Position numbers and translations under genes: made by a program
Shown: positions 15,801 to 42,003 of the stretch, piece after piece
Layout: every line of letters starts with the position of its first letter
Numbering within the stretch: the stretch's first letter is position 1
Assembly (NCBI GenBank): GCA_040954595.2
Contig: CM082591.2
Span: forward strand, 2,269,745-2,333,744
DNA: 64,000 nt
Direction: 5' to 3'
Source: Balanoglossus misakiensis
Lineage: Eukaryota > Animalia > Hemichordata
Notes under the pieces: generated by a model
The model's input: the letters and a program-made list of their open reading frames with translations, nothing else
Told to the model about the DNA's origin: nothing
The model's database searches: none

Positions 15801-18351
15801 GTCGCTATTTAATACGCTATTTTCAAATGATTCCATTTCGCGTCAATGACGGCTTTTCATCGTACTCGCAATGCTGTGAAACAATGGCGCAACCGCCGTC
15901 AAGTTATTCTTGCCTTGTTCGCGAATTCAGCGCCTAATTTTTATCCTAAATCTAATCTCGCCTGGATTAGCATTGAAACTCCTGTTTACCATGACAAAGC
16001 TGAAGAGCCTTTTTTGAAACTAAGCCTCCTTAAGTAAGTGAAAATTGCTTGTCTAGGTATTGGCCAATTAATGGGTTATTTGAGCAGTATGTCAAGTAAA
16101 TACCTGCACATCTGTTGCCACAGTAACGTAAATCTGGCCAGCTCCGTCTCAGACCGATGAGAAAATAAATCGACAGGACAAAGTATAAAGAGAATGTAGT
16201 GCTGTGTTTAGAGATGAGACCACGCATAATCAAAACACGCAAGTGATTACAGAGCAGAAATGGGCATTTTAGTTTCTGTCGGAAAGCTACAAACTGAAGT
16301 ATTTAACATTTTAAGAGTAAAAGAACAATTTGATTCCCTTATCCTGGGGTGATAACTCTACTACTTATCAACACCCACATTAATGTGACACTTGCATACA
16401 AGTTATCGACTGTATGACATTTGGATCAGTGCATAAGGGTACCTCATCTGTAACAGATATTTTCCATGCATTGCTTAACCGTGGTAAATTTCTGTCACCT
16501 TTGCGTGAGCGTTTGACATTTGTCAAATAGATCTGTTTTCTAAGCACGGCACCGCATCTATCCTGGTTGATATATTTGGTCGTTGGTCAGGCGGACACGA
16601 AGTATAATTTAAATTCTCGGCGACGGCACTGTAGCTTTGTACAGGGTAATAAAGATGAACGATTCTGACAGGGAAAACGTCAGGGATTATTTTCACATTC
16701 ATATAACACAATCTCGCGTTGGCAACTGAGACACTTAAGATAAGATTGTCCTTGAGAAAGTGCGAATCACCGATCTGACTTTGGATATTGGCTTCGGCGA
16801 GGAAGTCATGCTAGATCAAACACCGAGGTGTCTCAACTGATGCAGGGCTGTGTAAAATCTCATTGTTTGGTAGTCTGGTATTTAGCAGTGATTTGGAGTA
16901 AAGCGGACAATACACGGCTAAATACTAGACCAATTGTGTGGAGACTTAACTTATAAAGTTACATCACAGTGGTGGTGTGTTAAGCCACTGAGGAATTTCT
17001 TTGGTAGCAATGTTACCTCCTTGTGATCATGCATGCTTGTCAGTCAGTATAGCACAGGCTTAACCAAACATACAACTACTCATGCAGTCATCTTGCATAA
17101 TTTGTTTGCACCTTGTTGCAAGACAACTGATGTTTCATTTTAATGCAAACTGCAACATGAACTACACGAGTGGCAAAAGTCTGGCTTGGTGCTCGGGCCA
17201 CTGTGCTGTAATAAATATGTATTACATGGAAGTTGCTTGTAATGAAAATGGATCAGGGCAAAAGCAGAGGCGTCTTTAAGCACATGCTCAGATCCATCTT
17301 CAGAGGCATCAAAGTCAACAGATTAAACGATAAAATGAGAAGTTGCCATGGCGACACAACACAGACAATGATGATGGAACAGGACGAGAATAACTATGTG
17401 AACCCCAGCGGAGACATGTCGATGTTACACAATTCAACACAAGTACGAACGTGCAATGCTTACAGACTCCTCCATTAACCCTTTGAGTCAAAATGTGGTG
17501 CCACATTTTTATCATTTTAATACATTTTTTTCCAGTTTCTCCGTCAATTTTAGACCAAGAAGACATAATTTTACATCATCTGCAGGTCTTGATCAAAATT
17601 TCAGAAAAAAATGTTGAAAAAGTTATGACTAGGTAAATTCTGTGAAAAATGGAGACAAGTTGAATGGTGTTGAAAAGGTTGAACACAAGACTGTTTAGAT
17701 TTTCTTTTCATATCATTTAAAATATATAGCACACATTAAGTACACAATTAAATTAAGATAGTGATGTCCATGGTATGTTATAGGCAAGCAAATGCCTTGT
17801 ATTTGGAAGAACTAGCGACACTCAATCATCATATAGGTTAGAAGCAAACAGTTGTACTGGCATGCAAAAAACACATATTTGAAACGAAATCCATCCGGAA
17901 TATTCAACTGTAATAGATCCTCATCACCATCAGCTGTTACAACCAGTCCGTTTCATAAAATGGGATTTCGCTCGTCACATGGTGTGAAAAACCGTCACTT
18001 GAAAAGCCCGTTCCGGTCGGATTTGACATGTCCTATCAGCTTAGAGGTAATATTTTGTCGGGCTGGCCAATAACGTTAAGTCCTTGAGGCATATCAAGTT
18101 ACCGACGATCGAACGTGAAATGCAACATGTGTTGGGCCTCTGACAAGGATGAGTTCATCACAGCGACCAACAACATGTGTTTGTCGTATATTTCAAACTG
18201 TCTCTTTCACGCATACATTAAATATCACCCAAACCAGCTGGAATTTTCCCCATTTTTTTAAAACTCCACTTCAATAAATATCAGTGCTTCTTGTTGTTTA
18301 ATTGAATGTGTAATTTCACTTGTAATAGTTTGCTTGAAACACAAACAGTCA

Positions 18352-24400: not shown

Positions 24401-27400
24401 AAAAATTATTTACCATGTTTTTATCAAATCTAATGACAGGCAAGCTACATTTACTGAAAAATATTGCCTCATAACTGAGATTTATCTGACATATTACCCA
24501 GTAACTGGGGTTTCTCTGACATATTACCCCATAACTGGGTTTTAACTGACATAACACCCCATAACTGGGTTTTATCCGACATATCACCCCATAACTGGGT
24601 TTTATCTGACATATTACCCCAAAACTGTACAACAGAATCCAATGGGAGTTCATCAACACTTTGATATTGTTAGTTCACTGTTTATAGAGGCCCATGAACC
24701 AATGTTGTTATGGCCCAACAAATTCTCTTTAAAACTACAGCATCTCAACGCATTATACACTTCATACACCATACATCAACACGGACCTGCCACAGTAATG
24801 GACACTCTTATCTACCTTATGGAATGATTTTTTCCCCAACATAAAATATCCATTTTTAAGTACATCAATTACTATGCAGTGAAGCTAGCGCTATGCCATA
24901 TGAATACCAATGCCACGGCCTTGTCAATAAATTATCATCAATGACATTGCTGCAAATGAAGCTATACTTCATTGTAGTTTACAGTAAGATTAATGCTGAA
25001 AAAACTGAAGTGTGAACAAATGAACTAGAACGAAACTTTTTTTTTCCTGAAAACAAATAATATCCCCAAAAATATGATTTCAGTAGTGTTCTTTTACAGA
25101 ACATCAAAAAAACAGTAGCCAGTAGTTCTTAGACATTAGTGGAATGTTTAGCCTGATTTCCTCTTTTATTAGTTTCAGATCCATTACCAGTTTATTTTTA
25201 TCATTTCCATCAATGTTGCTGATCATGCATACATCTAAGTTACCAGACAGATAGAACCACAGGACAGCTATTACTGTGGTTGTGAAAATAGATCTGATAA
25301 AGATACTGATGTATGTATATTGATCACTACTAGACTAGATTAGGCTTGTTACTCTGTTTCTACATGAATTACCGTTAGTCGTAAACACTCATGAATCGGT
25401 GGCAGCTTCTTAGACTAAAACGACAGCAGAAACCGACAGAGGTCTCATTTTTGAGGATCACAATCACTGCTGGGCCCAGATTGAACATGACACAACGGTC
25501 AGACTCATTAAAAAAAAGTTTGTTCAACTAGTTTATTGTTTAGTTCTCAAATCCGGTTGATCACCCGAACAAGACTCCATGAAGTGTGTAAGGAAAAATA
25601 ATGCCGTGATTAACGTCTACTGGGATTCCCTAAGCGGGCTTAAGCCATTTTGTTTCGGAATCAGAAACCGTTTGGTTCCCAGGAACTTCTTTTGTTCACC
25701 AAAGCCCTGTTCAGTCATTGAAGATGGCTGAAAGCATAGAGCTAGTTTATCCCCAGGAATGTGGATTCGAAACTCAGCATTCAATGTACGGTAGTATTTG
25801 ACTTCTACTGTATTACCCGAATGAAACCATTCTGGCCGACACCGTAATGTGTGTAATAAACTGATAGCAAGAGCATTTTCGATATAAAAAACATGGTTTC
25901 ATAAAACAGATTCAACATTCAGGTTTACTGCTCACAGAAGGTCAACACCAAGCACAATAAAAGGCCAAAAAACAAACCAACAATAGTATTCTGAACAATG
26001 TATGTCCAAGTACAAACTTTTGATGGCTGGTTAGTTCAGAATGCATCTGATATATGGCAATAAAACAGAGGCCTTGCAACTTCACGAGAATGGAAACGGG
26101 AGGTCGAAAATACAAAAGATTCATTGACAATACAAATGTTCTAAAGGTCAAAAGTGCTTATGATTCAGAAACACAAATATGTGGCCTAATCGATAATTGC
26201 AAATATCATACAAACACAAATAAGAGGAAATGACTGGTCTCTGGTGTCAATGACAGGTCAATAACACAATGAAATGAACAACTCAACTATTATGCAAATG
26301 ACAGGTCAACAACAACTGATAATGACTGGGCAATAATGCAAGGAAGGGTAGTGATTGGTCGAGATGGATCAGCTCAGTAATGAAATCCCCCCGGCGCAAA
26401 ACGAAGAACTCATCACCCAGACAAAATAACTTGTCAACGTTGTGACTGCTCGACAGAACATGGATACAGATGAGAAGATGAGGAGCAAAGCGACCGAGGA
26501 TGCGACACATCCAGAATACAAATCAGAGATCAGCCTTTTTCTGTTCCTGACAGGTGCACAAAGCAAGTGACTGACACACTGTCGCCTTGCTTTTAGCACA
26601 CTGTTGCAAACTTGATGACACATGAAACACACCCAAGATCCAACCGATGACACATGTCTATCCACGTACCCTACACTGAATACTAATGAAGTGTGAACCA
26701 CTCGATAAATTAATAATTCGAATCTTCCCACAGATTTGAAATATTAATATCATGTCGCAACACGTCTTCGAAAAAATCAATCTTTTGACTTATTTTTGGA
26801 CTGGCTCAGGGTCAGATCATCGGATGTTCGTTCAAGTTGGGCCGCATGGACGCACGCTTGGGGCGGTTCAGTATTCCCAGACTTCCTCAATAAAATCGAG
26901 CCATGCTGGACAGCACCCTAACGGAAAGGCAACTTCATTAAATACACATCATGCCACCGCCGCACATCCATTATTGAATGTACTAGCTTCCAGCTGGCAA
27001 TGGCCAGAAACGTTCCAATCTATTATGCAATGATATCAACACTGACTTCTCTACAAAATATATCACACTCTACAAAGACAAAAAAAACTTTTGAAATATT
27101 ATGCAAGTATACATATTACTCCGTTGACAAAAACATGATGAATTATCTCAGACAGCTCAGAGCTTCCACCCAACCCTCACATAATTCATATGATTGATTA
27201 TTTTGTTTGCTGAGGGATCTCACATGAAGAAGTTCAACGAACTTTGCACACTCAATATATGCAACATATTTCAACAATATCGTCTATAATAACTTCAATC
27301 AGTGAACACATTCAATTATTTCCAGTAAATTAAAATATGCACATTGCACATTAGCAACTATACACTTTGCAAGCAGAAATGAGCACTTGTGAAAAAAATG

Positions 27401-32403: not shown

Positions 32404-33235
32404 CAGTACGTCCTTGCAAACTTTCATTTGGATAATAATTATGGACGTATACAGTGTATACAGCGGCCAATGCCATGTGATAAAATATACAAGGGCGAAG
32501 GAATGTGTACACATTTCCCTTTCAAAGAGATATACTGTTTTCCTTCAAGGACTATTTGAAAATTAAATAGCATTTCTACCAACAATTTATGAACAGTGAG
32601 TGAATGACAACTAAACTTCAAAGGGGGGTGTCCTTACGTACTTCAAACGTTTGTAGTCAACGAGTTTAAAAGTACGCGGTACTTATCAACATACTACTGG
32701 AATTACGCAGATGTGACCAAAGTACACACACGGACACAGCCTTTATTTACAGATAGGAGATTGTTGTGTGTCAACAAAAGTTCCTATCAAAAGATTATGA
32801 TATTTGACCAGCTTACAAACTAGTCTTTACCAAAAAGTCAGTACCTTCGTTACAGTCAGAATTTTGGAATATCAAATCGGATTTTGATTTGGAAAACTGT
32901 TCTAAAGCAAGGCAAAAATTAGGTGATCTTTATTGTTTAATATGCAAACATAGTCCGCTGGTCTGGCTAGTGTCCAACTCAAGAAAGTTACGTTTTCTCG
33001 CCAAATTTCAGCCCCTTTTAAGTGGCGCCCTCTACAGTCCAAGGAAAAGGGCACCAATCAAAAGAGCATTGTGGGTAGCTCAACCGTTGTAAGGACGCTT
33101 GTCTGGCTGATAGTGTTCCCCTACTGAGAAATCATGTGTTAAAACTGTTCTTTTATACATAGTTAGATTGCGCATCAGATCCAGATATATAGGGAAAGGT
33201 TAGTCAGTACTTAGGAGAGTTGAAAAGACTCCAAG

Positions 33236-36200
33236 ATGACGCAGTTTTTACCACCGAATCTGCTGGCGTTGTTCGCGCCGCGTGACCCGATTCCATACAT
33301 GACGCCTATGGTAAAACTTCCCCATGAAAAAACTGGACCGGGATACCATGGCGTTGGGGCGTTTCTGGCTAACTTTGAGGTAAGTCTTTTATTTGAGATA
33401 AAAACGAAGCCCATCAGGGCGTGCTTCTGTTCTTAAAGGACGATCTTTTGTCGTTTAACTTCATGACACGATGAAATGGGCTCATGTAGACATTTCAATA
33501 TGGCGGCCATGTGATCACAAAACGTGTCACGTGGGGACACTGGTCTCGAACAAATGAGGTATCATTCTCAAGTATAAGAGAACAGTGACCATAATAGACT
33601 CGATTTTCTTATGGTATAAACCAGAAGTATCGAAAAAATTACTTATTTAAATTTTACCAACATTGTATGGCTTCTGTGAAATGTACACAAAATTGGTTTC
33701 CTTTGTTAAATATTATGCAAATTAGTCACATGACATTTCATAGTGGTGTGAATCTTGTCTTGGGTGACAAAGCCAGTATGGCTCACATACATCATCATGA
33801 AAACTAAACTGAAATACAAAATATTAAATCAGCTATGAACACCATTGTATAATCTGTACCATTTATTTTTTCAGGATCCAAAAGATACGCCCCCACCAAC
33901 AAGAGTTGAAACTAAAGACGAACGCATGGAAAGAAAGGTATGTACAAACATCATTAATATTTAATGTTTCAATAATACTGGCCTAAATTATTGTGGACAT
34001 CGGGTTCATTTGATGAGGTCTGTATAATCAGATTAGGAACTGAAGATGTACATTGTAAGCATTAAATTAAGCAGTGATTTCCTTGAGAAAAATATGTGTG
34101 TAATAACTGAATTTGTACTTTTTATTTCAGAGGAAAGAAAAAAATGACAGCATTTCGATGAAACTGCAAGAGGAACTTGGCATGTGTAAGATTTTTCATG
34201 AGAATCGCTTTATAGAATGGTTGTCAGTGGACATTACATTGTTGGTCATTCAAGTAGTATCATTGTCTGTTATCCTGGGCTCTTCACATGTAGTGTCAGT
34301 CAATGAGGCTACATGTAGTAAACACCAGGTATAGTAAACATCGGTCTTTGGGAAAAAGTCAAATGATAACCATTGATTGGTGCGGTTATCATTGTTTTTC
34401 CAAAGTCTACAATTAACTCTTGTCACAGTCTAGATAAAATTATCTTCTGATGGGGTATTGGGATGTGAGTGTAATTTATTTTGTTGTTCTTTACAGGGGA
34501 TCCAAACAACATCAGTGGTGTAGGCGACGCATTCAAGACCCTCTTTGTTGCAAGAATTGTAAGTAGACCTGAAAGAGTTATTTATCTGTAATTCTGATGT
34601 TGGTTTTGAACTACTTGATGAGATAATTAACACTGCCATAACTGTTTTTATTCATGTCAACAGAACTATGACACTTCAGAATCCAAGCTTAGAAGAGAAT
34701 TTGAAGCATATGGACCAATCAAATCGGTATGTGGAAAGATGTGTATTTGTTGACCAGTATTTTGTTTAAAGAGGTTATTTTACTCTCATGTGAAGGTGTA
34801 GATGGTTATCAGTTTTAACAGATGTAAATATTCTTCTTTTTTTCATCTCTCAGATCCGTATTGTCCATTGTGTCAAAAGTGGTAAACCTAGGGGGTATGC
34901 ATTCATTGAGTACGAACATGAGAGAGACATGCACTGTAAGTATTACATCATTGATGAACTGCTGTTCTCTAAACACCCCCATGGAGAACTAAATATTAAT
35001 CCGGCAAATAATGTTAGCCAGTAAATAATGGTATCTGATCTTACCATTGTGATGTATGGATCAGTCACAAAGTTTTAAAATATGCATAATCCAGAGGGGA
35101 AAAAATCTGAAATGTAAGCCAGTTTTGTTGCTAAACACAGTCAATCATTAGTGTGTTGTTATGACTGTAAACCTAAAGCAACAGGGAAAGCTTTGATGTT
35201 AAACTCTTTGAACACCAAAGTCAACTTGTCATTTTGATAACAAAAAATTAAATTATATACTCTTGGTCCAAAATTAAGGGCGAAATGGCAAAAAAAAAGA
35301 AAATATTGGATCAGTGTTTTGACAGGAAATATTGTGGTGTTCAAAAAGTTAATAACTTGCAGGTCAAAGGGTAAATGTTAAATGCAAATAGACTCCCTAA
35401 GTGCATGGTAAGAGGTTATGAACTCTACTCATTGCAAAAATGTAAATGTATCTTCAAGTTGTGTTCAGAGTGATCAGACATATCTGGCAGAGGGTACCTT
35501 GAATGCATTTAACTTTCTTAAAATATTTAATAAGTTGACTTATGTAGGAAGTCATTAAATAATACCTGCAACATTTTCTGTCCGTCCCATGGAAAATGTG
35601 GAAGGTGCATGTTGAAGGTAGTCTGAAATGCGAGAGTTGGCATTTGCAGGAATTTAATATGGAGGGGGACATAAATGTAAAATTTTTGTGTAGTTGGGGG
35701 GACTAATATGAAGTGAAAATCAATATTTAATAAAAGCAGTTTATAGAGCTGAAGTTTAAAAAAGAAAACATTTAAGTAAAACTTAAAAATTATTCATGAA
35801 TGAAATTAAAATGGCTTGTGGTTAAAAGCCAACAGGTAAGACTTATTGTCTTTGTTGAATACAGAGAATGAAGTTTTTTTGTTGACCATTTTAACTGTGT
35901 CTCTGTATTATATTTTTGACACAGTGCCTTCCAGACAGATTGTACTGTCCTGTAGTCTCATACAGATATGGGTGGGTATGTGGTAAGCTGACCCAGGTAT
36001 ATTTTACTACACACTCAAAAAGAAATTATCCCTATATTGGCCAAAACTCTTTTCTCAGAAATCAGTTTCAGAACCTCAATTATTGAGACACCAAAATCTA
36101 TGACTGACTGCTCCGATAGCACAAATCAAAGTATAAAATTATCTGAGTTTTGAGCCAAATATTTGCAGACTCATGAAACAAATTAAACAGGCAAGATGAC

Positions 36201-39200
36201 AAATTTGCACAAAACAGTTTTTGGTCGTTTTTCCAAATTTGCATTAGACTCAAATCAGCTATATTTTTTACAACAATTCCCCTTACACTTTTAAGAATAG
36301 CCAGTTTTAAGAAAGTTGGTAGGTAGCATATCAGATTTTGATGAAAAATATCGACAAGATTTTGAAAAGAAATTTTAAAAAGTGAAAATTTGGCATGTAC
36401 AATACTAATGTAGTTTACATTTACCAAGCTGATATGCTTTCCAAGTTAGGCATCAGTTGAGTAGGGTCCACAAGCAAGTCAGGTTGAAATTTCTTTCTGA
36501 AGGCTTTTCTAGTCATATCTGTTCAAAATATTACGCAGATCCGAACCCTCTTCTATTCAGCTAGTTTGTAAAAATAATTGAAATTTGATGAACTTTTTGA
36601 AGTATCAACAAATGTGTGGAAATTTTTGCCCGATTTGTTCAAGTGGTCAGTTCTTACGAGTGGTCAGTTTTATCTATCAATCTGCCATCAACATTTAGTG
36701 TGTCTTTTTCTCATGATGTATTATACCTTTCAAGATGTCAAACGGCATCATGAGATTTGTTACAGTGAAACGCATATCTCTAGTGTTGTAAATTAAAGTG
36801 TCGTAAAAAAGTTTAATGAGAAATCCATTGATCCACTCAAGGAGAGAACTAACAGATATGGTTAGAATGCCTTCATTTTTTGAAAAACACCAAAACGGGT
36901 AAGTCGGGTAAGTTGCCAACAATATTGGAGGCAAATGGAAGACTTACTTCTGACTGGAGTTGTACCAAGTCCTGGACTGTTGCCATGCCAGCAAGTTCCC
37001 TTAGAAACAGTGAAGTGATTGGTTGGTTGTAGGTAAAAAAAATCTGGGTAATTTTGGTAGGTTGCATTTGGGAGAACAGCCCCAGTACAATGTGGACAGG
37101 TAAATCAAATTCTATGTTCAGTTGATTTTGCTAGTTCTAAGTTTACTTCTTATGAAAGCAAGTCTGTGGTAAGTCCTAGAAGTTTTTGAAAGTTCGTTGT
37201 GGAATTTTTGTACTGTTTGTGATGTGATTAATGCAGAAGGAAACTCATGTAATGTTGCAAGGTTCAGGTAAAGCGCTACACAGTAACAAATTACCACATT
37301 CAGGGAAACCAAAAAATGTCACAGATGAGTAAGTGGATACATTGTTGTAAGTGAAATGCAAAGTTGGATACATTGTTGTAAGTGAAAGTACAAAGTGGAC
37401 ACATTGTTGCAAGTGAACTGCAAAGTTGGATACATTGTTGTAAGTGAAAGTACAAAGTGGACACATTGTTGCAAGTGAACTACAAAGTTGGATACATTGT
37501 TGTAAGTGAAATGCAAAGTTGGATACATTGTTGTAAGTGAAAATACAAAGTGGGTACATTGTTGCAAGTGGAAGACAAAGTGGCTACATTGTTGCAAGAG
37601 AATTTTATTCAGGTGTACTGATATTCAAAATGCAGTACTTGGTAAGCTGCTGCATTGCTCAACAGGATTAGGGTAAAATGACAAAGTATTACAAATCCAA
37701 GGATTTGGGTAAACGGTTACATGAAGAAATTGATGCATTATTAAAATATTGAGGTATGGTGGGTGAAATTGAGGGTAAGGGTAAGATGGTACATGAGCGT
37801 AATGTGATACATTGTTACAATCCTAAGGATTCAGGTAAACCAATGTGTTGTTGCACAGACATGATTTTAGGTAAACTGTCACATCACAACCCAAGGAGTT
37901 GATGTGATTAAGTATATTTTAGTGGGGGTGGTTGAGTGTTTTGAACACATCAACATCTTAGTGTTTGAAAGTGCAGTTCAGTGAATGAAATCATTTGCTG
38001 GAAAGGTATATAGATGGTTAACCCTTTCTTTCATTCAGTAAGCGTTTATATATGTTGTACCTCTGGTCTGGCCCACCTGTGGTACATTGAGAAATGGTTT
38101 TTGCAGAGTTCAACAGAGCATATTGAAATATGAAAATATCCATCTGCATAAATTAAATATGGCCGAACTACAGTACTTGTCTTCACGCACAGAATGCTTC
38201 CACAAACCAAATGACCAGTTATATTTGTGAAAGCACTGTCTGCAGTGTAGATTCTGTGAAGATTAATACCCAGCTGGGGCCAGACTAGTGTGCCAAATGT
38301 CTCCCTGTCTGTACAGATGTCTACCTTCCATGTGTCGTCTGTACAGACTTGTGTTCACAGTCGAGACGTACCCACAACCCAGAAAACAGTTGTTTTTGTA
38401 CATGTTTTATGTTCACCTCGTTCAATATCATCCGATTTCCTGCGTTGGGTTCCTCGGAAAGAATAACGTGCATTTCAGATTTACAGGCTGTAATCCTGAC
38501 CAAACAGTAAGTATGAAAAAAAACTCTGAACTCGAACAACTCAAAGAAGTACACAACAGCCTGTTACAACAGATTCCTTTTAATTTTGTATCCTTGAACA
38601 GCTGCATACAAGTATGCAGACGGAAAGAAGATCGATGGCCGCCGAGTGTTGGTTGATGTGGAGAGAGCAAGAACTGTGAAAGGATGGCTGCCCAGACGAT
38701 TAGGTTTGTACGAGATTTAAGTTTCACAAAGTATTGGTACACTCCTTCTAAATCACTGTGTGTGCTCCATAGCATAGTTTGATTCCATAGCTAATTTAGT
38801 GAACGTTTTATTTTGTGTTTAGGAGGAGGATTGGGAAGTACTCGTAAAGGTGGACCTGATGTGAATATCCGTCATTCTGGACGAGAAGACATGATGTTGA
38901 AGTGAGTATTCTCATTGTTTTATGATTTACTCTCAATGTATTTATGTTATGATTCTACCTGGTGTTATACACCTCATAAGTATTTTTCTAGAACCCAGTG
39001 AATTATGTATTGATTATGTTATTGCTTTTGTCGTTTACAGCTCGTACCGAGATCGCGATGATGAAAGAGAACGGAGAGGAGGAGGAGGAGGAGACAGGGA
39101 CAGCAGGCGCAGGGATGCGGGTCGCAGAGATCGTGGGGAGAGGGAACACCGGGAACCCCGGGAACCTCGTAGGAAATCTAGAAGTCGCAGTCGGGAAAGA

Positions 39201-39980
39201 AAGAGGGAGAGAGAGCGTGACAGGGACAAAGATCGGGATAGGAGGAGGGATCGCGGTGATAGGGATCGGGACCGGGATCGGGAAAGGAAGCACCGTGATA
39301 GAGATAGGCGGGATAGGGATAGAGGCAGGGATCGAGACAGGGATAGGGATCGGGATAGAGAGAGGGAGGAAAGGGAAAGAGAAGAGAGACCCAGGGATGA
39401 GGCCCGGGAGAGAGATGATATGGAAGACATAGATCGGGAAAGGGAAGACAGATCTCGGGATAGGGAAAACCGGAATCGGGAAAGGGAAGACAGATCTCGG
39501 GATAGGGAAAACCGGGATCGGGAAAGGGAAGACAGATCTCGGGATAGGGAAAGGGAAGACAGGGATCGTGATCGGGAAAGGGAAGACATGGATCGGGATA
39601 GGGAAAGGGAAGACATGGATAGGGAAAGGGAAGACATGGATCAGGATAGGGAAGATCGGGATAGAGGAGATAGAGATCGGGATAGAGGAGACAGAGATCG
39701 GGATAGGGAAGACAGGGACCGGGATAGGGAAGGGAGAGACCGGGATAGGAGTAGGGGTAGAGACCGGGACAGAAATAGGGATAGGGACAGAGAGAGGGAT
39801 CTAGACAGAGATAATGAAGCAGAGATGTTCAGGGAGGAATATAACAACCGGCCAATGATAAAAGAAGAGGAGATAGAGGAAGGCGAAGAAATTGTTTTCA
39901 ATCATAAGCTAGAGCCCCCATCGCCACCTGAGGAGTTCATGATGCAGGAGATTACTGATGCAGAAATGGAACATCAATAA
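33236..39980 (+). CDS. SNRNP70: U1 snRNP 70 kDa protein, 529 aa, 9 coding exons
   Basis: Exons 33236-33379, 33875-33937, 34131-34185, 34497-34558, 34664-34726, 34854-34935, 38602-38703, 38823-38901 and 39041-39980 (1590 nt). [19 protein letters not shown]-terminus; RRM with [21 protein letters not shown] and [19 protein letters not shown]; RD/RE-rich tail. Confidence 0.98.
35199..35352. mobile_element. piggyBac-like (TTAA) MITE, family C, in the SNRNP70 long intron
   Basis: TTAA-actctttgaacacca ... tggtgttcaaaaag-TTAA inverted termini. Confidence 0.6.
35925..35996 (+). other. Candidate SNRNP70 poison exon (exon 7a-like) with three clustered donors
   Basis: Branch-like ttttaac (~35889), acceptor tttttgacacag|35925, donors at 35976 (gtatgt), 35983 (gtaagc) and 35997 (gtatat). 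In-frame TAA at 35984-35986. Confidence 0.55.
37333..37598 (+). repeat. ~31-bp tandem repeat, 9 copies, each with a GTAAGT/GCAAG 5' splice-site-like core
   Basis: Unit gttggatacattgttGTAAGTgaaatgcaaa; 5 copies carry GTAAGT and the rest GCAAG. Confidence 0.92.
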
Positions 39981-40810
39981 CCAGGTAGGAACTGGATTCT
40001 CTGTACCAGTACAACTGTAAACAGAAAGCCACTGGTCAACATTAATTGTACATTAGTGGAAATTTGTCAATTTAGTGTACTCCATTCACCCATTTTTTTT
40101 TTTTTGGTTCACAGAGTTTTCAAGTCGGCTGTTAGAGTCTTAACCAGCTGGGCGTCTACTACTAGCATATATGCAGCGACAAAGATACCAAGATACAGGC
40201 CATTTATATTTGTGCTGAGGTCCAAAACTCAGCAGCTGTGTAGTTTAGTTGAATAATGTAGTACATATTTAAGAGCGTAGGCGTAGGTCTGAACACAGCA
40301 AACTTCATACCAGTGGATTATGTTTTGAAGAGTAAGTTTCTGCCATTCATTGGCATTTACGGCAGTTTGCATTGAGTACAGTTGTTAATGCACTTGAATA
40401 AATAACTGGACCATGGAATTTTACTATAAGCAGAATTATTGAATTTCTCTGATTCATTTCAGTGAGTCGTTTTTCAATGCAAATCAATTACCATGTCACT
40501 ACTTTAATTAATGCGAGTCTTTTTAATACTTTCATAGTATGCATGATTGTCCAAGTTGTCCAACAGCTGAGCAAGTTTACGTTCAATTACGCTGGAAACC
40601 AGCTTTTAGGAGTCAACCAGTTTCAATGTCATTTCTGTTTTAAGAATAGGGCATTTCTGTTACTTTTTTCATAATGCTTTTGTCAAATTGATCATACAAA
40701 AGCTGCATTGACGATCCATTATTATTTCACTGAAACAAAGAGTTGTTACAATTAAATTTAATACAAAATGCTTGTTTTAGAAGTTAACCTTTGACCTTTC
40801 GTAATGAGAT

Positions 40811-40872
40811 AGGTAAGTACATCTTTGTCTAAGGTAAGTCATGTTTCCAGTCGATGGAATTAGAAGGTAAGC
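40811..40872 (+). promoter_or_regulatory. Three consensus 5' splice sites in the SNRNP70 3' UTR
   Basis: AG|GTAAGT (40813), AAG|GTAAGT (40834) and AAG|GTAAGC (40867); AATAAA at 41022. Confidence 0.6.
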
Positions 40873-42003
40873 TTGTTTGCAGACTTTAATCCGAATGAAT
40901 TTCATTGGAACCTCTGAAGAAGGGAGTTTTAGTTTGTTTTTGAAGCAGTTTGTGGAAATATATCAAGCAAAGTGTTGATTTTTTTTAAAACTTGAATGTG
41001 TAACTGTTACAAATGCCTGCCAATAAATGTTATTTTCAAATGACAAATGTGTTGACTGTTGTATTAAAACCTCCATGCTTTGTTGTACCAATACAGTTTG
41101 ACATTAAAGTCCTTGTGAACAATACTGGGTAAAATATTAAATCAACGTGATATAGCTGACAACTGATATGAGCAGCTCATGAAATGTTGCAGTAGATGAA
41201 ATGAAACACCCCACATTGTGTTTGTGGGTAGGTTGCAATCGAATATGTTATTGAAGTTGAGATGAAATGCAATACAATAAATTAAATTAAAACTTCCACT
41301 ACGGGTAATACATACCACTAGAATTAAATAAAGTTATAAATTAATGGAGGTGTAGCAATGTAATACACAATTAACCCAATTCTATTCGGATAACATCCTT
41401 TTGTAAACATGTCATTGCAAATTTTAGTCATGTCGTTGAGGGCGCTTATTATCAAGAAACAATACATGTACTCCTATCAATCTGTACTTTGTTTTACTCT
41501 TGCACTATTTATTGACACATCATTTAAAGAAAAAATCAAAATTTTCATTCCATCTCCGATGTAAAAACCAAGTACATGTAAATTTCTCATCTCCTGGACA
41601 CTATTTCAGTTGCATGTAAACATTCCTTTAGAAAATATATTGAAAATATATACAGTGCAAAAAATTTCAGTGTATTGAAAAAGGTGAGAAAATAAAAAAA
41701 CGTGAATGTACAGTACAAACAGTTAAAAATAGTGCAGTTTGACATAATACCAAAATAATGTATTTTCATTGTTTACATTTTCTATCTCAAAACTTTTAGA
41801 GAGAGAGAGCCCATGAAATACAGGTGACATATCATCTCTTCAAACTCATACTACAAAACAATTATTGCAATTTGATTTGACATCTAGCATAAAGTAAAAA
41901 CCCAGCAAGAATTATGTGGTGGGGCTCGGACCCAGAATATTGTAATTGTCCACGTGGGTGATCACCCCTTGGTGTTTTCAGTCAGCTGCGTTGACGTTCA
42001 TCT

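Follow-up and report, generated by a model that had tools for sequence, protein, structure and literature searches.

Intron 6 of a hemichordate SNRNP70 gene, a probable counterpart of the vertebrate U1C/U1-70K splicing switch, carries a dense array of donor mimics

In human SNRNP70, the gene for U1-70K, intact U1 small nuclear ribonucleoprotein (snRNP) on closely spaced donors (5' splice sites) activates an internal acceptor; the rest of intron 7 is left largely unspliced, the RNA is sensitive to nonsense-mediated decay (NMD), and productive splicing returns once U1C or U1-70K is lost (PMC3798272). The U1C/U1-70K loop is one of the few worked-out cases of the spliceosome balancing its own parts. 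Blocking decoy donors lowers SNRNP70 retention from ~35% to 9% (PMC7373989), and unspliced donor motifs keep reporter RNAs nuclear through U1-70K and ZFC3H1 (PMC9074902). Here we analyse 64,000 nucleotides of the hemichordate Balanoglossus misakiensis (contig CM082591.2; hereafter the window, numbered from its first letter), which contain an SNRNP70 gene with one long intron, intron 6. By analogy with the vertebrate elements, this intron is probably the invertebrate orthologue of the feedback switch, in which an array of donor mimics (unspliced donor look-alikes) would act as a set of redundant decoys, holding the downstream part of the intron in the RNA and marking that RNA.

The coding region comprises nine exons with an open frame of 529 amino acids and GT-AG introns, and among the named proteins compared its closest match is from the hemichordate Glandiceps talaboti (85% over 216 amino acids). 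Intron 6 is 3,666 nt long, the seven remaining coding-region introns 105-495 nt. Its ERDMH junction is identical in a fish locus (L036) that bears a zebrafish-type exon 7a, and on this basis intron 6 is the orthologue of vertebrate SNRNP70 intron 7. The real donor, ACT|GTAAGTAT, has a predicted pairing with the U1 5' end of -7.3 kcal/mol, without exon-side pairing, and is outscored by 21 sites inside the intron. Three runs of one sample (X1, X2 and X3) supplied contigs; X3, labelled 'DNA?', contains five spliced GT-AG joints (introns 1, 2, 7 and 8 and an intron in the 3' untranslated region, UTR) and is treated as RNA-derived for that reason. The features on which the argument rests are these:

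33236-39980, plus strand: SNRNP70 (U1-70K) coding region, exons 33236-33379, 33875-33937, 34131-34185, 34497-34558, 34664-34726, 34854-34935, 38602-38703, 38823-38901 and 39041-39980
34936-38601, plus strand: intron 6, phase 1, within the Ser codon of ERDMHS
35368-35843, plus strand: three upstream donor mimics (35371, 35408, 35836), from sequence and pairing score
35885-35924, plus strand: predicted alternative acceptor, AG at 35923-35924, with a pyrimidine tract and a 49-nt AG-free zone
35925-35990, plus strand: predicted exon-7a-like unit, 47, 51 or 58 nt to donors 35972, 35976 and 35983
36896-37878, plus strand: 14 GGTAA donor mimics forming the downstream array (shuffles with the 31-bp repeat left out average 1.8 and reach 14 in 0/1000)
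36896-36914, plus strand: donor doublet with 9-nt spacing, the strongest array sites (-11.4 kcal/mol each)
37331-37602, plus strand: 31-bp minisatellite, period 31, 8.8 copies
37664-37886, plus strand: older degenerate repeat of ~36-nt period, polymorphic, with GGTAA at 37673, 37709, 37781, 37835 and 37871
38489-38601, plus strand: 3' end of intron 6 kept unspliced in an X3 contig (record 17, depth 4.3) from which introns 7 and 8 have been removed

The likeness to the vertebrate switch is closest at the exon-7a-like unit. A branch-like TTTAAC lies ~30 nt upstream of the predicted acceptor 35924, and the unit carries the donor string G|GTGG|GTAT..G|GTAAG, whose GTGG form is shared with corals. 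By the morpholino sequences and Fig. S2 text of PMC3798272, exon 7a of human, mouse and zebrafish has a match to this core in its B/C region, and the window donors 35972, 35976 and 35983 correspond to the B/C region of the vertebrate triplet; judged by sequence, the conserved unit 35925-35990 is the part of the intron that matches the tested human elements. The core pattern, defined after the sequences had been seen, has a unique match in the 64 kb on both strands and is reached in 3/2000 shuffles. An exon-intron junction pattern found 59 loci (numbered L) in metagenome contigs, with 26 complete introns of 248-4325 nt, the window's included. The motif G-GTKK-GTAT-n-G-GTAAG occurs in 29 of the 53 loci with at least 300 nt of intron, while G-GTKK-GTAT is found in 22/26 complete introns and the full form with a following GGTAA in 20/26, each with no antisense occurrence; the core is present among coral, bryozoan-like, insect and fish loci. 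A MAFFT alignment of eight exon-7a regions put the window's sequence off register and was discarded.

Use of the unit would truncate the protein. Reading on from 35925 into the intron meets a TAA at 35984-35986, inside the third donor (codon 177), and donors 35972 and 35983 give frameshift stops. In bryozoan-like, hymenopteran, coral and L038-type loci, the tails of truncated proteins map to intronic YAG acceptors 54-115 nt before the core. The exon at intron position 316 of the hymenopteran-like L041 yields a 175-residue truncated U1-70K isoform (P0128-P0136) that is near-identical across bees, wasps and ants, and honeybee protein isoform X1 represents an in-frame version of the internal-acceptor exon. 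By analogy with these truncated orthologues, acceptor 35924 is predicted to be usable.

RNA-type contigs at this junction also point to retention or unproductive splicing. In X3 record 17, the last 113 nt of intron 6 continue into exon 7, full and partial retention being indistinguishable in it. Elsewhere, 18 of 68 junction-reaching homologues leave the normal frame exactly at the junction, 6 as intron read-through and the other 12 as would follow from use of a different acceptor; some of the 18 are gene models and possibly prediction errors. Nine contigs (L002, L007, L014, L009, L013, L016, L023, L038 and L042) are spliced and in frame from Met1 up to the junction, past which they enter the intron, and genomic relatives have upstream introns (L032, L015 and L006; L029 and L056; L058 and L059); the search pattern required the intron's GT, so these counts give no retention fraction.

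The second component is the array. Leaving out the real donor, positions 34946-38601 hold 18 sense GGTAA against 3 antisense and a further 9 sense GTAAG without a leading G against 3, which makes 27 distinct sites on the sense strand and 6 on the antisense strand. In dinucleotide shuffles of the intron (n=1000) there are means of 5.2 GGTAA and 1.0 GGTAAG, and the observed 18 and 9 are each reached in 0/1000; the GGTAA excess persists when the 31-bp repeat is removed (18 versus 4.7 expected, 0/1000). A predicted U1 pairing of -8 kcal/mol or stronger is found at 16 sites of the sense strand and 2 of the antisense strand. The distribution is uneven, with 14 GGTAA within 36890-37880 and none in 36001-36889 or 37881-38601, and the top 1-kb GGTAA bins of the whole window, either strand, fall in intron 6 (12 at 37001, 6 in the best bin outside). 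The highest count outside the intron coincides with a 30-bp tandem repeat of 5.6 copies on the minus strand (24461-24627). An earlier note on this sequence had described the intron as rich in sense-strand donor mimics, and scoring both strands upholds this description as a strong sense excess, with every example site it quoted in place; it had also equated the intron with its vertebrate counterpart and expected retention or unproductive splicing at the junction, and both agree with what we find in the fish locus and the RNA-type contigs. The exon-7a-like unit went unmentioned there.

Comparison with homologous introns shows the strand-specific excess in many animals. After near-duplicates (L007, L014, L019, L031, L048 and L053) were dropped, 20 introns were kept. 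Sense GGTAA outnumbers antisense in 20/20 (165 versus 25 in sum over 36,073 nt), whereas other SNRNP70 introns have 4 versus 6 in 6,293 nt and 10 versus 22 in 12,207 nt, and in 18/20 introns at most 5/200 shuffles reach the observed count. GGTAAG is the top 6-mer across the set (105 versus 8.7 expected; antisense 5); GGTGAG is not enriched (8 versus 6.2 expected), and the GGTAAG signal is therefore specific. Among the sites, A at -2 trades against G at +5 (17/30 versus 88/30, Fisher p 6e-6), as if the sites were tuned to middling strength; real donors show a similar trade-off. Sites lie mostly downstream of the core, 14 versus 3 in the window, a bias that most introns share. A mimic also stands at 38507, and in 8/20 introns (L018, L020, L037, L040 and L049 among them) one is found 35-95 nt ahead of the real acceptor. 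Recursive-splicing ratchet points were considered and ruled out by inspection, the CAG|GTAA sites having no pyrimidine tract. By protein likeness the set covers a stony coral group (L013, which clusters with Orbicella, and L018, which has an internal exon in common with L044 and L056), bryozoan-like loci (L002, 88% alike to Watersipora), a springtail (L042), a fish (L036), a leafhopper-like insect (L016) and a hymenopteran-like one (L041); L009 is taxonomically unplaceable at ~65% to everything, and the remaining loci are unplaced.

The array itself is not conserved letter by letter. Nucleotide alignment to 50-odd homologous introns shows, beyond the exon-7a core, a single shared stretch of 18-23 nt, the doublet at 36896-36914, of which 18 nt are identical in two bryozoan-like lineages; this may be convergence, since ~25 doublets occur in the set. 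The 400 nt around the doublet (36844-37243) have 0 listed variants where the mean rate would predict 11.8, and 24 variants fall in 37244-38004, a weak and suggestive sign because single runs contain further stretches of 400-700 nt that do not vary. The ~36-nt repeat carries five GGTAA sites and local duplication has therefore fed the array, which in the best explanation is redundant and turns over through point change and local duplication.

Put together, these components suggest the following course. U1 snRNP containing U1C would bind the donors at 35972-35983 and define acceptor 35924, and exon 6 would be joined to 35925, not to 38602. The remaining 2.6 kb would be poorly excised, with at least 14 competing donors tying up splice sites and bound U1 helping to hold the RNA in the nucleus. 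Exported RNA would be removed by NMD through its early stop, either the TAA at 35984-35986 if that is retained or, alternatively, a frameshift stop in exon 7 after splicing from donor 35972 or 35983. When U1-70K or U1C runs short, the weak sites would be left unoccupied and normal splicing would prevail.

Several observations weigh against this account. On the side of the core, donor 35976 would yield an in-frame 51-nt exon (a 17-residue insertion) with no stop; no GT donor lies 8-12 nt upstream of 35972, and thus there is no clear counterpart of vertebrate site A, which in human is the most used site and sufficient in vivo (PMC3798272). Use of acceptor 35924 is not seen in RNA of this species, the stretch 34420-38395 having no cover in X3; the core is missing in 4/26 complete introns (L024, L039, L042 and L046), and the core pattern was derived from the very sequences in which it was counted. 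The retention contig is one unitig of low depth, and a unitig does not equal one molecule; it comes from one sample and from the run with the label 'DNA?'. As to the array, the 20 introns amount to about 12 related groups, L009 and L041 have no significant GGTAA array by the shuffle test, and 17 partial introns of at least 1 kb give 85 versus 41 GGTAA in 39,272 nt, with no excess in L001, L010, L011, L022, L025, L026, L034 and L052. One sampled haplotype loses array site 37775, and in it a 116-nt stretch with two further array sites is exchanged for 224 letters.

Three other explanations of the array have to be weighed. The earlier note had proposed that this lineage amplified the sensor, by way of the 31-bp repeat among others, into a multivalent array that counts U1 snRNPs. 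The window's 18 GGTAA are indeed the largest count of the 20 introns (next 15), and the degenerate ~36-nt repeat did duplicate sites; the density of 4.9 per kb is nevertheless below the median of 5.85, and 12/19 other introns are denser, which speaks against lineage-specific amplification. Also in favour of the amplification, the 31-bp repeat appears to be local: it has no second locus in the window and is not high-copy in X1 and X2 (peak depth 242 versus ~62-73), where no high-depth or loose-ended contigs lie on it at 80% likeness. Its portrayal as built from donor mimics holds for five of the nine units, which read GTAAGT (-6.2 kcal/mol), and fails for the four that read GCAAG and so have no GT; T replaces G at -1 in all of its donors and none reaches -7 kcal/mol. 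An X2 contig shows GC for GT at 37348, in the first unit, though this could also stem from copies standing in another order. In the set of 19 introns besides the window's, this class of site barely exceeds expectation (TGTAAGT 7 versus 3.7; TTGTAAGT 2 versus 1.4), compared with 52 versus 2.7 for TGGTAAG. The repeat has the weakest sites, is polymorphic and belongs to a class not enriched in other animals, and the role claimed for it finds no support; it is likely a local minisatellite, an incidental passenger in the array, and we regard the amplification scenario as very unlikely. A separate 47-nt stretch of the intron (35250-35295), 81% alike to 17525-17571 of the other strand, is probably a dispersed repeat fragment.

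A different division of labour would have the exon-7a core alone sense U1, the array shielding the intron from premature cleavage and polyadenylation, or tagging the RNA for nuclear retention or decay, with no effect on splice choice. U1 protects transcripts from premature polyadenylation. The window's intron contains eight AATAAA/ATTAAA, most mimics come after the core and so fall in the portion that the unproductive isoform keeps, and U1-70K-dependent retention of donor-bearing RNA is known (PMC9074902). Against a shielding role, sense-strand AATAAA is already depleted in the homologous introns (19 versus 30 expected), and arrays are present even in introns of 248-608 nt, the shortest of which, in L024, has four donors in its first 60 nt. 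L039, L042 and L046 have dense arrays despite having no core, which suggests that arrays may themselves act as the sensor, and a purely core-based sensor seems unlikely to us. A last reading takes the mimics as neutral, a side effect of base composition, of local repeats or of the biology of introns in general, and we find it scarcely credible: the zone is G-skewed and partly repetitive and some sites are polymorphic or lost, but shuffles that keep the composition reach the count in 0/1000 trials, distant animals whose introns do not align have this very motif at the top, and on a single strand, the other SNRNP70 introns have no excess, and the signal is specific, GGTGAG not being enriched. 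The feedback switch with an array of redundant decoys therefore stays the reading that we consider probable.

Beyond the intron, two further features lie downstream of the coding region:

39985-40114, plus strand: 3' UTR intron of 130 nt, 4 nt past the stop codon, with a spliced joint in X3
40810-40874, plus strand: three strong donor mimics in the 3' UTR (40813, 40834 and 40867; -11.9, -10.6 and -9.5 kcal/mol)

The triplet sits 155-210 nt ahead of an AATAAA at 41022, and of the 11 AGGTAAG in the window on the two strands three fall within these 60 nt of 3' UTR. X3 contigs span 40817-40980 unspliced, with no joint from the 3' UTR mimics listed. The triplet may form a second U1 brake, on polyadenylation, which is conceivable because U1-70K takes part in U1-dependent polyadenylation inhibition (PMC3798272); a U1 site acting on 3' end formation has been described (PMC5473595). 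It is not general, since other loci have 0-2 such sites (two in L039, one each in L038 and L055, none in L002, L006, L009 and L020). A polymorphic 3-letter insertion at 40872 leaves the 3' UTR mimics intact, and X3 shows a second variant of the 3' UTR intron joint a few bases further on. Contigs of the one sample differ at ~250 places in 8.5 kb (33000-41500) and the X2 haplotype differs from X1, so either heterozygosity in the sample is high or several individuals went into it. The RD/RE-rich tail of the protein (39300-39810) is expanded by nested tandem repeats with periods of 12-54, and the protein is ~90 residues longer than that of Glandiceps.

More speculatively, and with more doubt than confidence, the locus may belong to a two-part U1 rheostat found from corals to vertebrates, in which an ultraconserved core gives access to a poison acceptor, and middling G|GTAAG sites in a rapidly changing array, selected for number and not sequence, set how steeply U1-70K falls as U1 rises; some lineages would have lost the core and kept the array only, and this species would add a third brake, the three strong U1 sites before the polyadenylation signal. 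A coral-shared core would place the loop before the cnidarian-bilaterian split and open it to experiments in insects and further tractable animals. Regulatory elements that persist as a one-strand motif density are invisible to alignment and escape conservation tracks, and the natural series of 3-18 sites in introns of 0.25-4.3 kb lends itself to asking whether intron retention is tuned by the number of sites.

The switch as such is already published for vertebrates; for its invertebrate form and for the array, both likely regulatory, our literature searches found no paper, within a coverage that left out most subscription journals and so is no proof that none exists. The available parts of PMC12179342, PMC11162794, PMC5389617 and bioRxiv 10.64898/2025.12.30.697080 contain nothing on this intron.

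Among described systems, the vertebrate exon-7a switch is the closest: it shares the gene and the intron, an internal acceptor with close donors ~50-70 nt on, a near-identical B/C core and the introduction of a stop, and in human the downstream intron is largely retained (PMC3798272). It differs in being described as a vertebrate-conserved switch (human, mouse and zebrafish), in having three sites plus a distal site D where the window's intron has 18 GGTAA and no clear site A, and in being known from functional tests, the window's switch being proposed from sequence. The decoy exons of SF3B1, OGT, SNRNP70 and SPTA1 are likewise splice sites with little or no use, placed far inside a long intron of a gene for a splicing factor and linked to retention, but they are discrete and conserved from fish to mammals, unlike the dispersed donors kept here as motif density (PMC7373989). 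The U11 snRNP-binding splicing enhancer of U11-48K and U11/U12-65K consists of donor mimics in tandem, through which an snRNP brings about unproductive, nucleus-retained RNA of its own subunit, and a U1 site with an effect on 3' end formation resembles the window's 3' UTR triplet (PMC5473595); that system belongs to the minor spliceosome and relies on a fixed tandem pair in place of an array (PMC5473595, PMC3798272). Ultraconserved pseudo-5' splice sites are also unspliced donor look-alikes in homologous animal introns that are read by U1 proteins, although these are single sites acting as silencers; in the available text, SNRNP70 appears once in the human list of vertebrate-conserved pseudo-donors and is absent from the eight ultraconserved or animal-wide sites (PMC13100119).

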